This document shows positions 259-5,214 of a stretch of 5,214 bases of DNA, in pieces. The number at the start of each line of letters is the position of its first letter. Positions within the stretch are counted from its first letter, which is position 1. The translations under genes were made by a program, and so were the position numbers. The DNA comes from a virus. Taxonomy: Duplodnaviria > Heunggongvirae > Uroviricota > Caudoviricetes. The notes under the pieces were generated by a model, which was not told the origin of the DNA, did no database searches, and worked only from the letters and a program-made list of their open reading frames with translations. The stretch covers positions 1-5,214 of IMG/VR virus record IMGVR_UViG_2534681705_000014. One strand, given 5' to 3'.

Positions 259-870
259 ATGCGCCATATTTTATTTTTTGTCGCTTTTCTGGCAGGAATG
301 GCCCTTCCTGCGCAGGCTGAAGTCGGACACGGTGCGTTTTCCGTGGGATATGCTCAGGTTCACCCGGGCGGCGTGCCGGCATTGTCCGGTACCGGTGCCC
401 GTACAGGTGATTTAAAAGGGATTAACGTGAAATACCGTTATGAATTCACGGACCATGCGGGTGGTATTGTTTCGCTGAGTTATGCGTCGGCGAAAAAAAG
501 CGACACGATGAAGACGGGTGAAAATACGTTCCATTATGAAAGCCTGCGCGGTCGTTATGTGAGTCTGATGGCCGGCCCTGTCTGGCAGGTCAGTGAGCAG
601 GTCAGTCTCTATGGCACGGCTGGGATGGCTTACACCCGCTGGTCTGACAGTGTTCAGGATTACCGACGTGATGAATTGAAACCGGGGTATGTGAAGGAGA
701 CGACCACCGCCAGTGATGGCTATACCGCACGACACCTGTCGCTGGCATGGGGTGCGGGTCTTCAGTTCAGCCCGGCAGAATCCGTGGCCATTGATATTGC
801 TTATGAAGGCTCCGGCAGTGGTGACTGGCGCACTGACGGTTTCATCGTGGGTGTCGGTTATAAGTTCTGA
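259..870 (+). CDS. lom: Lom-family outer-membrane protein (Ail/Lom/PagC/OmpX-type 8-stranded beta-barrel), prophage lysogenic-conversion gene
   Basis: 203-aa ORF with a Shine-Dalgarno AGAGG (249-253) 5 nt before the ATG. N-terminal signal peptide MRHILFFVAFLAGMALPAQA with an A-x-A cleavage motif. Alternating aromatic/hydrophobic beta-strand pattern and a C-terminal …DIAYEGSGSGDWRTDGFIVGVGYKF ending in Phe, as expected for a BAM-dependent barrel. The segments KGINVKYRYE, FHYESLRGRYVS and KETTTA and the C-terminus match my recollection of phage lambda Lom. Position between J and stf matches lambda. Confidence 0.9.
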   Translation: MRHILFFVAFLAGMALPAQAEVGHGAFSVGYAQVHPGGVPALSGTGARTGDLKGINVKYRYEFTDHAGGIVSLSYASAKKSDTMKTGENTFHYESLRGRYVSLMAGPVWQVSEQVSLYGTAGMAYTRWSDSVQDYRRDELKPGYVKETTTASDGYTARHLSLAWGAGLQFSPAESVAIDIAYEGSGSGDWRTDGFIVGVGYKF

Positions 871-934: not shown

Positions 935-3900
935 ATGGCAGTAAAGATTTCAGGTGTACTGAAAGACGGTGCAGGTAAACCGGTACAGAACTGCACAATC
1001 CAGCTGAAAGCAAAACGTAACAGCACCACGGTGGTGGTGAACACGGTGGCCTCAGAAAATCCGGATGAAGCCGGGCGTTACAGCATGGACGTTGAGTACG
1101 GTCAGTACAGCGTTATTCTGATGGTGGAAGGCTTCCCGCCATCGCATGCCGGGACCATCACCGTGTATGAAGACTCACAACCGGGTACGCTGAATGATTT
1201 TCTCGGTGCCATGACGGAGGATGATGCCCGTCCGGAGGCACTGCGCCGCTTTGAACTGATGGTGGAAGAGGTGGCGCGTAACGCGTCCGCAGTGGCACAG
1301 AACACGGCAGCCGCGAAGAAGTCAGCCAGCGATGCCGGCACATCAGCCCGTAAGGCGGCAACCCATGCGACTGATGCTGCAGGCTCAGCACGTGCAGCCA
1401 GCACATCAGCCGGGCAGGCCGCGACGTCGGCTCAGTCAGCGTCTTCCAGCGCAGGAACGGCATCAACAAAGGCTACTGAAGCATCAAAAAGTGCTGCCGC
1501 TGCAGAGTCCTCAAAAAGCGCTGCGGCTACCAGTGCCGGTGCGGCGAAAACGTCAGAAACGAATGCTTCAGCGTCACAACAATCAGCCGCCACTTCTGCA
1601 TCCACCGCGACCACGAAAGCGTCAGAAGCTGCCACCTCAGCCAGAGATGCGTCGGCTTCAAAAGAGGCGGCAAAATCATCAGAAACGAACGCATCATCAA
1701 GCGCCAGTAGTGCAGCTTCCTCGGCAACGGCGGCAGGAAATTCCGCGAAGGCGGCAAAAACGTCCGAGACGAACGCCAGGTCTTCTGAAACGGCAGCGGG
1801 ACAGAGCGCCTCGGCTGCGGCAGGCTCAAAAACAGCGGCTGCGTCGTCTGCCAGTGCCGCGTCAACAAGTGCCGGGCAGGCCTCAGCCAGTGCCACCGCT
1901 GCCGGAAAGTCGGCAGAAAGCGCCGCATCATCCGCTTCAACAGCCACAACGAAGGCTGGCGAAGCCACTGAACAGGCCACGGCAGCAGCGAGGTCAGCTT
2001 CCGCAGCGAAGACATCCGAAACGAACGCGAAAGCGTCGGAAACCAGCGCAGAATCCTCAAAAACGGCTGCCGCATCGTCAGCCAGTTCGGCGGCGTCATC
2101 GGCATCATCGGCGTCTGCTTCAAAAGATGAGGCGACCAGACAAGCGTCAGCAGCGAAGGGCAGCGCCACGACGGCATCCACGAAGGCGACAGAGGCAGCT
2201 GGCAGTGCGACGGCGGCAGCTCAGAGCAAAAGTACGGCGGAATCCGCGGCAACGCGCGCCGAGACAGCAGCAAAACGGGCAGAGGATATTGCATCCGCTG
2301 TGGCGCTTGAGGATGCGAGCACGACGAAAAAGGGGGTAGTACAGCTCAGCAGTGCGACCAACAGCACTTCCGAGTCACAGGCGGCAACGCCAAAAGCCGT
2401 TAAGGCCGCGTATGACCTGGCTAACGGGAAATACACCGCACAGGACGCTACGACAGCACAAAAAGGAATTGTCCAGCTCAGTAGTGCAACCAACAGCGCA
2501 TCTGAAACGCTTGCCGCGACACCGAAAGCAGTGAAAGCAGCTAATGATAATGCGAATGGTCGGGTACCTTCTGCCCGTAAGGTGAATGGTAAGGCGCTTT
2601 CAGCGGATATAACACTGACGCCGAAAGATATTGGTACGCTTAACTCAACAACAATGTCATTCAGCGGTGGTGCTGGTTGGTTCAAATTAGCAACGGTAAC
2701 CATGCCACAGGCGAGTTCCATCGTTTACATCGCATTGATTGGTGGCGCTGGTTACAACGTCGGTTCCCCACATCAGGCAGGCATTTCAGAACTGGTTCTA
2801 CGAGCAGGCAATGGAAACCCCAAAGGAATTACCGGGGCTTTGTGGAAGCGTACAGCCGTCGGATTAACGAATTTCGCCTGGATCAACACATCCGGCGATA
2901 CATATGATATTTACGTTGAGATTGGCAATTATGCGACGAGTGTAAATATCCATTGGGATTGTACTGCAAATGCGTCAGTTTCTGTTTATACCTCGCCAAC
3001 ATATTCAGCGAGTAAGCCTTCCAGCGTTACCTATGGTGTTGTTTATACGATGTATAGCTCACATCAGAAACCTACACCATCAGATATTGGAGCACTGCCA
3101 ACAACCGGAGGAACAGTTTCAGGTCCGTTGTCTGTTACAGGTGGATTAACTGGTTCATTGAATGGTAATGCAAGTACAGCCACGAAATTGCAGACGGCAA
3201 GATCTATCGGTGGAGTTGTTTTCGACGGTTCTGCAAATATTAACCTTCCAGGTGTAAACACTACGGGTAATCAGAACACCACTGGTAATGCTGCAACTGC
3301 TACAAAACTTCAGACTGCAAGAAAAATATCCGGTGTTCCATTTGATGGTTCTACTGATATCACTTTAACCGCCGCGCATGTGGCTGCTTTTGCCAGAAGG
3401 GCAACGGATACATATGCCGATGCGGATGGTGGCGTTCCCTGGAATGCCGAATCAGGCGCTTACAATGTCACCCGCTCTGGCGACACCTATATTCTGGTTA
3501 ACTTCTATACCGGAGTCGGAAGTTGCCGGACCCTGCAGATGAAGGCGCATTACAGAAATGGAGGTCTGTTCTACCGTTCCTCAAGAGATGGCTATGGTTT
3601 TGAGGAAGGCTGGGCAGAAGTTTATACCTCGAAAAATCTTCCACCAGAAAGCTACCCAGTCGGCGCACCAATCCCGTGGCCATCAGATACCGTTCCGTCT
3701 GGTTATGCCCTGATGCAGGGGCAGACTTTTGACAAATCTGCCTACCCGAAACTTGCAGCCGCTTATCCGTCAGGCGTGATCCCTGATATGCGTGGCTGGA
3801 CGATTAAGGGCAAGCCCGCCAGTGGTCGTGCCGTATTGTCTCAGGAACAGGACGGCATTAAATCGCACACCCACAGCGCCAGCGCATCCAGTACGGATTT

Positions 3901-4294
3901 GGGGACGAAAACCACATCGTCGTTTGATTACGGCACTAAATCCACGAATAACACTGGTGCGCATACCCATAGTGTTAGCGGTACGGCTGCTTCAGCCGGT
4001 GCACATACCCATTCGATGACATTTGTTTCAGGTGGTTCCAGTGGTGCTCCGGGAAGTGGATCACCTGATTATTCTAAATACAGTGTTAACACTTCTTCTG
4101 CAGGCGCTCATACGCACTCTGTATCGGGTACTGCTGCAAGCGCAGGTGCACACGCACATACTGTCGGTATTGGTGCTCATACGCACTCCGTTGCGATTGG
4201 TTCACATGGACATACCATCACCGTTAACGCTGCTGGTAACGCGGAAAACACCGTCAAAAACATCGCATTTAACTATATTGTGAGGCTTGCATAA
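935..4294 (+). CDS. stf: Side tail fibre protein Stf, intact long form (about 1119 aa from the ATG), with conserved N-terminal domain, Ala/Ser/Thr-rich periodic stalk, tail-fibre repeats, a distinct central module and a His-x-His-rich C-terminal tip
   Basis: One uninterrupted frame. The ORF track begins at GTG 929 (MNMAVK…) but ATG 935 ([12 protein letters not shown]…) is better placed, 5 nt after GGGG at 926-929, and matches the lambda Stf N-terminus as I recall it. N-terminal block [26 protein letters not shown]…[15 protein letters not shown]…[23 protein letters not shown], the tail-fibre repeat [11 protein letters not shown]…[10 protein letters not shown], and the C-terminal …[36 protein letters not shown]…[29 protein letters not shown] are hallmark lambda Stf / T4 gp37-type segments. 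The stop TAA (4292-4294) overlaps the tfa ATG. Confidence 0.93.
1280..2326 (+). repeat. Degenerate tandem repeat tract inside stf: about 25 copies of a 42-bp (14-residue) Ala/Ser/Thr-rich unit
   Basis: Seen in sequence: the AAK(T/S)SETNA motif recurs in-frame at nt 1541, 1667, 1751 and 2003, spacings of 126, 84 and 252 bp, all multiples of 42. The protein parses into 14-residue units (…[14 protein letters not shown] / [14 protein letters not shown] / [14 protein letters not shown] / [14 protein letters not shown]…). GC is high here, about 70% in the 60-nt line 1801-1860, and the tract throws off long shadow ORFs in other frames. Confidence 0.8.
2333..2542 (+). repeat. Two tandem copies of the conserved phage tail-fibre repeat (about 44 aa, 132-bp period) inside stf
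   Basis: Seen in sequence: [34 protein letters not shown] and [33 protein letters not shown], with matching DNA gtacagctcagcagtgcgaccaacagc (2336-) and gtccagctcagtagtgcaaccaacagc (2468-). The motif corresponds to the phage tail fibre repeat family as I recall it. Confidence 0.8.
3164..3370 (+). repeat. Two tandem copies of a 40-aa (120-bp) tail-fibre shaft repeat inside stf
   Basis: Seen in sequence: [28 protein letters not shown] and [28 protein letters not shown], starting 120 bp apart (3164 and 3284) and separated by a Gly/Asn/Thr linker [12 protein letters not shown]. Confidence 0.8.
3863..4225 (+). repeat. His-x-His repeat region of the Stf C-terminal tip (SHTHS, GAHTHS x3, GAHAHT, SHGHT)
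   Basis: Seen in sequence: repeated (S/G)AH(T/A)HS units, including two near-identical [17 protein letters not shown] blocks. Established knowledge: the homologous T4 gp37 tip coordinates metal ions through His-x-His motifs in a trimeric needle, and the lambda Stf C-terminus belongs to this family. Confidence 0.8.
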
Positions 4295-4875
4295 TGGCAT
4301 TCAGAATGAGTGAACAACCACGGACCATAAAAATTTATAATCTGCTGGCCGGAACTAATGAATTTATTGGTGAAGGTGACGCATATATTCCGCCTCATAC
4401 AGGTCTGCCAGCAAACAGTACCGATATTGCACCGCCAGATATTCCGGCAGGCTTCGTGGCTGTTTTCAACAGTGATGAGGCATCGTGGCATCTCGTTGAA
4501 GATCATCGGGGTAAAACGGTTTATGACGTGGCTTCCGGCGACGCGTTATTTATTTCTGAACTCGGTCCGTTACCGGAAAATGCCACTTGGTTATCCCCGG
4601 AAGGGGAGTTTCAGAAGTGGAACGGCACAGCCTGGGTGAAAGATGCAGAAGCAGAAAAACTATTCCGGATCCGGGAGGCGGAAGAAACAAAAAACAGCCT
4701 GATGCAGGCAGCGAATGAGCATATTGCGCCACTTCAGGATGCTGTAGATCTGGAAATCGCAACGGAGGAAGAAAACTCGTTGCTGGAAGCCTGGAAAAAG
4801 TATCGGGTGTTGCTGAACCGTGTTAATACAACAACTGCACCGGATATTGAATGGCCAGTAGCACCTATAGGGTAA
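4294..4875 (+). CDS. tfa: Tail fibre assembly protein Tfa (chaperone for Stf trimerisation, T4 gp38-like family)
   Basis: 193-aa [57 protein letters not shown]…[24 protein letters not shown], which matches lambda Tfa as I recall it. Shine-Dalgarno GAGG (4282-4285) lies inside the end of stf. The ATG (4294-4296) overlaps the stf TAA, consistent with translational coupling. Confidence 0.93.
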
Positions 4876-4961
4876 ATTCGTAATGATTACCTAAATACGT
4901 TATTCTTTTGTTCAAAAAGTGATTTTGCTATAGGTAGGGAGTATGTTCTTGGATTAATAAT

Positions 4962-4992
4962 AAAAAATCGCCATGAAAGAGCTTCATGGCGA
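4962..4992 (-). terminator. Strong rho-independent terminator oriented for minus-strand (leftward) transcription, facing the 3' end of tfa
   Basis: Seen in sequence: perfect 10-bp inverted repeat TCGCCATGAA (4968-4977) / TTCATGGCGA (4983-4992) with a 5-nt loop AGAGC. On the minus strand the hairpin is followed by UUUUUUAUUAUU (complement of 4950s-4967). There is no T-run on the plus-strand side. Confidence 0.7.
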
Positions 4993-5214
4993 GTACATAA
5001 ACGTACAAAATGTGATGAAAGTAGAGTGGCGTAAGCCACTATATTAAGATATGACAATAGCAAACAAAAGTAAATAACATTTTATGGACGTTTAATTGTT
5101 AATTATAAAAACTAGAGTGCCCGATATTGTTTATCTTGCTTTAAAATAATGTACTCAAACCAAATTTTTGAGCTAAAAGCTCAAATAATATAAATGCAAT
5201 GATAATGTTTAATA

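Follow-up and report, generated by a model that had tools for sequence, protein, structure and literature searches.

The Ala/Ser/Thr-rich tract within the side tail fibre gene (stf) of this tailed-phage sequence very probably forms the proximal rod of a StfR/Stf-type side tail fibre from a lambdoid prophage. A single heptad register holds over its 357 residues, giving 51 unbroken repeats of the consensus S-A-x-x-A-x-x, and the evidence supports an Ala-rich alpha-helical coiled-coil stalk, probably trimeric by analogy with published homologues, rather than a disordered linker. That the Stf fibre has a heptad stalk is already known. The window is the whole 5,214-nt stretch that was analysed, and residues of the stalk are counted from the ATG at 935.

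The gene order, J - lom - stf - tfa, is that of the right end of the tail operon in lambdoid phages; gpJ, upstream of lom, is seen in a 99.7%-identical genome locus (L122). The ORF lister starts stf at GTG 929, and ATG 935 is the counterpart of the lambda Stf start MAVKISG in PDB 9e7m. Pfam recognises phage_tail_N, Phage_fiber_2, Collar and Phage_fiber in the protein, with PF08400 covering residues 1-134 (E=4e-72). The collar domain attaches to the tail tube and tip, and is followed by a linker region in which the AlphaFold2 (AF2) model has a pLDDT below 50 (aa 85-101). Further traits of lambdoid Stf and StfR proteins are all present: an Ala/Ser heptad stalk directly after the collar, then a Phage_fiber_2 repeat (with a second copy directly 3' of the first), GAHTHS repeats, a Collar domain and a gp37-like C-terminal tip. 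Pfam gives no credible match for the long ORFs (335, 249 and 255 aa) that cross the tract in other frames and on the minus strand, and these are taken as by-products of a stop-poor GCN/TCN/ACN codon composition.

Table 1. Features of the window, with nucleotide positions, strand and supporting evidence or remarks.
Feature	Position (nt)	Strand	Evidence or remark
lom, Ail/Lom outer-membrane protein gene, upstream of stf	259..870	+	Ail_Lom, E=3e-50
stf, side tail fibre gene	935..4294	+	1119 aa from ATG 935
N-terminal collar domain, aa 1-94	935..1216	+	E=5.8e-52 to lambda Stf 1-94 (PDB 9e7m/9mgh)
7-residue linker after collar domain	1217..1237	+	Layout of heptad register; lambda linker; AF2
Stalk tract, aa 102-458, 51 unbroken heptads, consensus S-A-x-x-A-x-x	1238..2308	+	Autocorrelation, Fourier, register, AF2
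AAKTSETNA motif, copy 1 (heptads 15/16)	1541..1567	+	
AAKSSETNA motif, copy 2; left junction of -16-heptad alleles (P0128, P0131, L005)	1667..1693	+	
AAKTSETNA motif, copy 3	1751..1777	+	
AAKTSETNA motif, copy 4; right junction of -16-heptad alleles	2003..2029	+	
9-bp tandem repeat (CGGCATCAT, 2.4 copies) within the tract	2091..2112	+	Tandem Repeats Finder
First Phage_fiber_2 repeat, after the stalk	2318..2440	+	Pfam
Distal receptor-binding tip, aa 905-1119, T4 gp37 needle homologue	3647..4291	+	E=5.6e-88 to PDB 2xgf
tfa, tail fibre assembly chaperone gene	4294..4875	+	Caudo_TAP, E=6e-43

The periodicity of the tract was studied by Fourier analysis, autocorrelation and a custom heptad-register Viterbi model. 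The first-pass annotation had placed an Ala/Ser/Thr tract at 1280-2326, which is in frame with stf and corresponds to residues 116-464. Its composition is as described, with 37% Ala, 24% Ser and 13% Thr, alongside just 3.7% Gly and an absence of Pro; the limits need adjusting, as the periodic tract starts 42 nt earlier and ends 18 nt earlier. For lags up to 56, residue autocorrelation has z values of 8-10 whenever the lag is a multiple of seven, and the Fourier peaks of Ala fall exactly at 3.50, 7.0 and 2.33 residues. Position 5 of the heptad is occupied by Ala in 47 of 49 cases and by Val in the other two, while Ser occupies position 1 in 37/49 and Ala position 2 in 35/49. Hydrophobic heptads are found at both ends of the tract, the C-terminal one being IASAVAL, and the larger hydrophobic residues are confined to heptads 1-3 and the final one.

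The same annotation had read the tract as about 25 units of 14 residues in strict 42-bp phase. Such a tandem array, expanding and contracting by whole units, would be a contingency-type repeat making the length of the fibre hypervariable. Four AAK(T/S)SETNA motifs are indeed present, spaced 126, 84 and 252 nt apart, each distance being divisible by 42; given heptad phasing, the chance of four motifs sharing one parity is 1 in 8, and the related SETA and SETS heptads sit on the opposite parity. No 14-residue unit underlies these motifs. Autocorrelation at lag 14 (0.385) is not stronger than at lag 7 (0.415) or lag 21 (0.399), and permuting the order of the heptads gives no support for a 14-residue super-period (p = 0.58). 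Super-periods of 2-13 heptads yielded a marginal signal only at 11 heptads (p = 0.046, uncorrected), and no higher-order duplication was found inside the tract, the best 28-aa window, at 71% identity, lying at the 95th percentile of column-preserving shuffles. The period is seven residues, and therefore the number of units is 51.

The nucleotide sequence likewise argues against a 42-bp array. Tandem Repeats Finder (minimum score 30) detects neither a 21-bp nor a 42-bp array, its sole report being the short 9-bp repeat, and DNA autocorrelation is higher at 21 nt (z = 6.6) than at 42 nt (z = 4.5). No exact direct repeat within the tract exceeds 12 nt. The repeat copies are only 60-81% alike as DNA and share no more than 12 nt of exact identity, so the proposal that 42-bp units make the tract prone to recombination is not supported: these copies are not similar enough for the slippage or frequent unequal recombination by which a DNA tandem repeat or contingency locus is recognised. 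Where identical residues lie one to four heptads apart, the third codon positions match at a rate of 0.23-0.34, and codon usage alone predicts 0.23-0.34; synonymous sites in the tract are random.

Among complete Escherichia coli genomes, 3582 of 5426 contain the tract at near-full length (at least 80% matched), places containing the tract number 8414 across the 5426, and its span is identical in all 16 that were sampled, down to 89% nucleotide identity. In a first homologue search all matches were at least 91% identical to the query and nearly all had the tract length of the window; the diversity of alleles was hence drawn from a search of representatives together with IMG/VR loci. Most of the length differences between these alleles and this tract are of whole heptads, at -28, -105, -112 and -224 aa, equivalent to -4, -15, -16 and -32 heptads, and an indel of -1 heptad is also seen. 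The expectation that fibre length can vary through gain or loss of repeats is thereby borne out, and the junction of the -16-heptad deletion does lie inside two of the AAK(S/T)SETNA motifs. By contrast, the -15 and -1 differences are odd numbers of heptads, which a 14-residue unit does not accommodate. A 14-residue, 42-bp array in the form proposed is refuted by the autocorrelation, the permutations, the synonymous sites and the constant span, and is barely credible as an account of the tract.

The 51-heptad tract is the common form. As K-12 StfR and most E. coli genomes have this stalk as well, the tract is ordinary, and it can be called expanded only in relation to lambda. A few rare alleles differ by -3, +4, +9 or -253 aa and so break the heptad register. 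The 3-aa deletion (a gap at aa 387-389 in P0019, P0063 and P0110) corresponds to the loss of one copy of the 9-bp repeat, with the register shifted. The existence of these alleles implies that strict phase is not absolutely required; alternatively, they may be defective.

A different proposition is that the tract is a low-complexity spacer, acting as a flexible tether that is possibly glycosylated or unstructured. Ala, Ser and Thr together make up 74% of the residues, large hydrophobic core residues are nearly missing from its interior, and the AF2 monomer model, made from the single sequence with no alignment, is of low confidence (mean pLDDT 60), falling below 50 in the stretches richest in Ser. 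The same model nonetheless predicts helix throughout, from residue 99 to 462, and Pro is absent and Gly scarce (3.7%). Nor does disorder offer any reason why one register should persist over all 357 residues and, unbroken, in 49 of 56 representatives of the family's clusters, with tracts of 81 to 344 aa, or why position 5 should be so consistently Ala. Across 128 distinct alleles of the same tract length, entropy is 0.03-0.04 at heptad positions 1, 2 and 5 and 0.15-0.28 at positions 3, 4, 6 and 7, such that the former are 4-8 times less variable; an unstructured spacer gives no cause for this selective constraint. Furthermore, the homologous parts of the lambda and DT57C fibres appear in cryo-ET and cryo-EM as rigid rods and three-helix bundles. 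The first-pass annotation's preference for an Ala-rich trimeric coiled coil is thus supported by the register, the Ala peak at 3.50 residues, the lack of Pro, the predicted helix, the positional constraint and the trimeric coiled coil of the published lambda gpStf model, and a disordered spacer is very improbable.

At the positions that may form the core, Ala, Ala and Ser stand in place of Leu, Ile or Val. In sequence terms this fits a core of the alanine-zipper type; an Ala/Ser core is unusually weak for a coiled coil. The assignment of the core is ambiguous, as either positions 5 and 1 or positions 2 and 5 could represent a and d.

Ala at each seventh residue is also the hallmark of antiparallel Alacoils, and the helices might accordingly be packed in some other bundle, whether through a chain folding back on itself, through antiparallel packing of the Alacoil type or as an oligomer other than a trimer. 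The AF2 monomer does fold back on itself, at residues 242-254 and 381-395, yet the heptad pattern is kept at both sites and neither has a Gly or Pro turn signal. AlphaFold3 similarly folded back full-length lambda Stf, a prediction its authors considered inconsistent with cryo-ET of extended, hinged fibres (PMC12617516). In that work lambda gpStf consists of a collar, a linker (92-101), a trimeric proximal coiled coil (102-393) and a hinge, the published rod being an AlphaFold3 prediction fitted into cryo-ET density of low resolution (PMC12617516). Twelve copies of the collar domain form the collar and give rise to four trimeric fibres, with three linkers seen entering one bundle (PMC12617516); twelve collar domains for four fibres implies three chains in each. 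A folded-back, antiparallel or non-trimeric bundle is therefore very improbable, and the parallel trimeric coiled coil is the reading retained here. PDB sequence searches identified no solved structure of the tract, returning only marginal matches (E about 0.03), and PDB coverage of the lambda homologue extends to residues 1-94 only.

The closest comparison is with StfR of the K-12 Rac prophage (1120 aa; WP_000279097.1). Its first 494 residues are 97% identical to the Stf of the window without a gap, which implies that StfR has the same 51-heptad tract in the same position, and its C-terminal 336 residues are 90% identical. Both genes are preceded by lom and followed by tfa. By contrast, the two proteins are unrelated in their middle part (about aa 495-783), indicating a mosaic module swap, and the window prophage lies at ydfJ, the Qin site, whereas StfR is at the Rac locus. 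The gpStf of Ur-lambda (774 aa; PDB 9e7m/9mgh for 1-94; Yu et al. 2025, PMC12617516) has a collar domain and linker like those of the window, a heptad register that begins at residue 102 and ends in IASAVAL, an aligned stalk that is 82% identical and a gp37-like tip. It has 36 heptads as opposed to 51, the difference being a single block of 105 aa, so the first-pass statement that this tract is longer than that of lambda was correct, by exactly 15 heptads. There is one Phage_fiber_2 repeat in lambda and two in the window, and the distal shaft of lambda is shorter and different. The tract end motif and register are common to the window, lambda and StfR.

More distant parallels are suggested by weak sequence matches of the tract to T7 gp17 (173-267) and DT57C LtfA (33-158), each at E=0.03. 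The N-terminal rod of the L-shaped fibre formed by DT57C LtfA/T5 pb1 (PDB 8hqz) has Ala/Ser/Glu heptads with S-E-x-x-A and SETNA-like motifs. In LtfA a three-helix coiled coil, observed by cryo-EM from residue T40, leaves a dodecameric ring at the tail tip (PMC10713586). Attachment differs: LtfA is joined by beta-strand augmentation to a separate LtfC ring, while the collar domain of Stf is built into the fibre protein. The proximal half-fibre of T7 gp17 (about 150-270) is trimeric, and its rod has similar small-residue heptads (…SAGNSASAAHQSEVNAENSATASANSA…), although it is much shorter, has more charged residues and follows an unrelated N-terminal docking domain. Alanine-zipper trimeric coiled coils, such as Lpp-56 and its Ala-core variants, are parallel trimers with Ala in the core that form thin, tightly packed bundles. 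These are short (<60 aa) and are not fibre proteins, hence their likeness to the Stf stalk is by analogy only. A literature search combining 'SETNA' with 'tail fiber' returned no match.

These observations suggest an architecture in which three Stf chains would each contribute one collar domain, bound at the junction of tail tube and tip. Past the linker, aa 102-458 of the chains would come together as a three-stranded, parallel alpha-helical coiled coil, in which the small residues at positions 1, 2 and 5 may form a slim Ala/Ser core and T, S, K, E and Q would occupy the outward positions. At approximately 1.04 nm per heptad, the rod would measure about 53 nm, compared with about 37 nm for the 36 heptads of lambda. 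It would separate the tail from the hinge, distal fibre and gp37-like receptor tip, and the side fibres would thereby make contact with the cell surface ahead of the central fibre. The periodicity is probably maintained by selection on the protein fold, as opposed to recent duplication of DNA. Changes in length between alleles probably result from occasional slippage, or unequal recombination, between heptad-phased motifs that are imperfect and scattered, such as AAKxSETNA, and for this reason most are of whole heptads.

A bolder possibility, which seems unlikely, is that this is an exceptionally long trimeric Ala/Ser zipper of 51 heptads and about 53 nm without discontinuity, whose length is set in whole-heptad quanta by rare recombination between SETNA motifs to give adaptive length classes. 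These discrete classes would be of about 19, 35/36, 47 and 51 heptads. In each, the reach of the side fibre would suit either how deep the host surface layer (O-antigen or capsule) is or how long the central J fibre is. In the rare +2 and +6 (mod 7) alleles, the stalk might then contain hinges, or breaks resembling beta layers.

The main value of these results lies in the correct annotation of the tract as a coiled-coil rod of 51 heptads, exactly as long as the one in K-12 StfR; it should not be annotated as a 14-residue repeat array or as a hypervariable locus. The consensus S-A-x-x-A-x-x, with constrained positions 1, 2 and 5, is a simple rule by which such rods can be found and measured in fibre proteins. 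The natural series, in which one collar domain is combined with 19, 35, 36, 47 or 51 heptads, is a ready test set for the effect of side-fibre length on adsorption, and is similarly useful for engineering Stf-display or retargeted lambda fibres.

The window covers the right-hand end of a lambdoid prophage's tail operon, and the same block, annotated gpJ, Ail-Lom, phage tail protein and tfaQ, is present in an E. coli chromosome at 99.7% identity. The ORF lister starts stf, the side tail fibre gene, at GTG 929; Stf is numbered here from ATG 935, matching the MAVKISG start of lambda Stf in PDB 9e7m. In PDB sequence searches, its N-terminus matches lambda Stf 1-94 (E=5.8e-52), aa 905-1119 match the T4 gp37 needle (E=5.6e-88), and pieces of the Mu tail fibre gpS are also matched (5yvq at aa 492-551, 8ju3 at aa 816-910). 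PHROG 3299 ('unknown function') spans aa 501-816. The strong hairpin between lom and stf (8 pairs, 7 of them G-C, then a T run) lies only 17 nt upstream of the stf start codon, hence stf expression is predicted to need read-through or antitermination. GC content falls to ~34% 3' of tfa (4876-5214). As a truncated ydfJ adjoins the block in the near-identical chromosome, separated from tfa by a small hypothetical gene, this segment probably represents the boundary between prophage and chromosome at the Qin site.

Features of the window, with Stf residues numbered from ATG 935
Feature	Position	Details
J 3' end	to nt 191	
lom	nt 259-870	Ail_Lom, E=3e-50
Terminator-like hairpin	nt 897-918	between lom and stf
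stf	ATG 935	3.36-kb gene between lom and tfa; 1119 aa
phage_tail_N	Stf aa 1-134	Pfam
Heptad tract	nt 1238-2308	Stf aa 102-458
Phage_fiber_2, two repeats	Stf from aa 462	Pfam
Phage_fiber	Stf	Pfam
Collar	Stf aa 910-957	Pfam
Other-frame ORF (+)	nt 1332-2339	335 aa
Other-frame ORF (-)	nt 1432-2181	249 aa
Other-frame ORF (-)	nt 1527-2294	255 aa
tfa	nt 4294-4875	Caudo_TAP, E=6e-43
Terminator-like hairpin (-)	nt 4992-4968	downstream of tfa

The first-pass annotation had described nt 1280-2326 as an Ala/Ser/Thr tract of about 25 units of 14 residues. The span is in frame (Stf aa 116-464) and of that composition (37% Ala, 24% Ser, 13% Thr, zero Pro; Gly is 3.7% of the tract), and its four AAK(T/S)SETNA motifs, separated by 42, 28 and 84 residues, are real. 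The bounds and the unit have to be revised, as a single unbroken register runs from ALRRFEL (aa 102) to IASAVAL (aa 452-458), giving 51 heptads at 1238-2308. Residue autocorrelation is 0.39-0.42 at each multiple of 7 over lags 7-56 (z 8-10 against shuffles), and its value at lag 14 (0.385) does not rise above those at lags 7 (0.415) and 21 (0.399). Shuffling of heptad order reveals no 14-residue super-period (p=0.58), nor is any other prominent, the top candidate being 11 heptads (p=0.046, uncorrected). Given heptad phasing, the four SETN heptads would share parity by chance in 1 of 8 cases, and the related SETA and SETS heptads sit on opposite parity. The Ala Fourier peaks fall at exactly 3.50, 7.0 and 2.33 residues, and the consensus, counted over 49 heptads, is S-A-x-x-A-x-x, with Ser at position 1 in 37, Ala at position 2 in 35, and Ala (47) or Val (2) at position 5.

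Nor is the strict 42-bp phasing previously proposed found in the DNA. The sole DNA tandem repeat that Tandem Repeats Finder returned for the window, even at a permissive threshold, has a 9-bp unit in 2.4 copies (2091-2112; CGGCATCAT; protein SSASSASSA), and DNA autocorrelation is maximal at 21 nt (z=6.6), being lower at 42 nt (z=4.5). The direct-repeat families of the SETNA motifs are 60-81% alike across 32-35 nt, the longest exact direct repeat within the tract is 12 nt, and the best 28-residue self-match (71%) is not above column-preserving shuffles (95th percentile 0.71). Between identical residues spaced one to four heptads from each other, the third codon position agrees in 23-34% of cases, against a codon-usage expectation of 23-34%. 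On these results, the periodicity is kept at the protein level, and is not the leftover of recent 42-bp unit duplication. A-over-T skew is strong in the tract (up to 0.46). Pfam gives no credible match for the stop-free ORFs that overlap it in another frame or on the opposite strand; they most likely arise as a side effect of its GCN/TCN/ACN codon composition.

As stated in the first-pass annotation, the tract is longer than that of lambda Stf, which has 36 heptads; the distance between conserved flanking anchors is 105 residues greater here, in one alignment gap equal to 15 heptads. However, 51 heptads is the usual form, 'expanded' only relative to lambda. Over its first 494 residues, Stf aligns without gaps to StfR of the Rac prophage in E. 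coli K-12 MG1655, at 97% identity; the middle is unrelated (aa ~495-783, window 2417-3284) while both ends are 90-97% identical, so a module has been swapped. Of 5426 complete E. coli genomes, 3582 match the 1099-nt tract across 80% or more of its length. The span is identical in all 16 full-coverage matches of a sample spaced evenly down the ranked hits, to 89% nucleotide identity, and the anchor distance equals the window's in 64 of the 80 IMG/VR loci whose N-terminal domain is closely similar. The locus is therefore length-stable rather than hypervariable, which, with the divergence of the copies and the shortness of exact repeats, argues against the suggested recombination-prone 42-bp array.

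Length does nevertheless vary by gain or loss of repeats, as had been proposed. Alleles sharing both anchors fall into classes of 0 (128 distinct sequences), -28, -105, -112 and -224 residues relative to the window, or -4, -15, -16 and -32 heptads, and one homologous protein, P0132, has a deletion of a single heptad. A 14-residue unit is excluded by the odd counts of the -15 class and P0132. The junction of the -16 alleles (P0128, P0131 and locus L005), SKEAAK(S/T) SETNAKA, lies within AAKxSETNA motifs 2 and 4, supporting the idea that these motifs can serve as crossover points. Out-of-phase alleles are rare: -3 aa, coinciding exactly with the 9-bp repeat (protein clusters P0019, P0063, P0110), +4 aa (L032), +9 aa through duplication of a 27-bp unit (L020) and -253 aa with TAAA microhomology at the junction (P0143, P0145, P0154). 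The -3 and +4 alleles are stutters in coiled-coil terms, with a shifted heptad register. The +9 and -253 changes, which amount to +2 and +6 in heptad phase, belong to the insertion classes that yield beta-layers in other trimeric coiled coils (PMC4786415), and might do so here; some out-of-phase alleles may be defective. Under our register model, 49 of 56 family representatives (50% identity clusters in which the N-terminal domain is present and the tract reaches 70 aa or more) keep one unbroken register, over tracts of 81-344 residues. Experiments have shown that lambda stf and Rac stfR can recombine (PMC3945230), a plausible route for swapping stalk variants.

The reading of the tract as a coiled-coil stalk is supported by the 3.5-residue periodicity, the lack of Pro and the constraint on positions 1, 2 and 5 (mean entropy 0.03-0.04, against 0.15-0.28 at 3, 4, 6 and 7, in the 128 distinct same-length alleles), as expected of an alpha-helical coiled coil whose core is made of small residues. 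Conventional hydrophobic heptads, in register with the rest, close the tract at either end, IASAVAL being the C-terminal one. The core could comprise positions 5 and 1 as a and d with 2 as e, or 2 and 5 as a and d with 1 as g. A single-sequence AF2 monomer model, of low confidence (mean pLDDT 60), is helical over 99-462 save for two fold-back breaks, weakly favouring helix over disorder. No PDB structure spans the tract; of the lambda homologue, residues 1-94 alone are deposited. Ur-lambda gpStf has been studied by cryo-EM, cryo-ET and segment-wise AlphaFold3, and is described as having a collar domain (1-91), linker (92-101), trimeric proximal coiled coil (102-393), hinge and distal part, with 12 collar domains per four fibres and three linkers entering one bundle (PMC12617516). 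The feature is already known, its sequence being that of K-12 StfR and its structural reading that published for lambda gpStf. When the tract is searched by itself, marginal matches (E~0.03) appear in the proximal rod of T7 gp17 and in DT57C LtfA 33-158 (PDB 8hqz). LtfA is a three-helix coiled coil from T40 on by cryo-EM (PMC10713586), and its aligned sequence has S-E-x-x-A heptads and a SETNA motif, as in Stf.

A similar tract follows a different ~150-aa N-terminal domain in P0140, P0159, P0172, P0181, P0185, P0197 and P0230 (up to 394 residues in a single register in P0230), which suggests that the rod is exchanged among attachment modules. Seven giant proteins of 2496-4436 aa (P0210, P0212, P0215, P0235, P0241, P0244, P0250) have 5-14 separate S-A-x-x-A-type tracts of ~30-200 aa with spacers of ~160-240 aa, as if coiled-coil rods alternated with globular domains in a very long fibre. 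Divergent alleles from Escherichia ruysiae and Escherichia sp. (L097, L101, L105) keep the register, but their higher-order pattern is visibly different; L097 has a nine-heptad block twice, followed by a different distal domain (…PLPDVWIPFNDSLDMITGF…). Low-coverage contigs L083-L096, L098, L099 and L104 have an stf N-terminal domain 93% identical to the window's, and come from assemblies of unrelated organisms, including Pseudomonas, Shewanella, Leeuwenhoekiella, Desulfosporosinus, Oceanobacillus and Kitasatospora. Several are ~48.4-48.5 kb, L083 codes for the 401-aa product of the frameshifted lambda PaPa stf, and they look like phage lambda DNA contaminating these assemblies.

The standard rise of such a helix is ~0.148 nm per residue, from which the rod would be ~53 nm long here and ~37 nm in lambda, a difference of 16 nm. 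In the proposed arrangement, collar domains would anchor three chains where the tail tube meets the tip, and the chains would zip into a slim parallel coiled coil of 51 heptads with an Ala/Ser core. This rod would place the hinge, distal shaft and gp37-like tip such that the side fibres reach the cell surface first.
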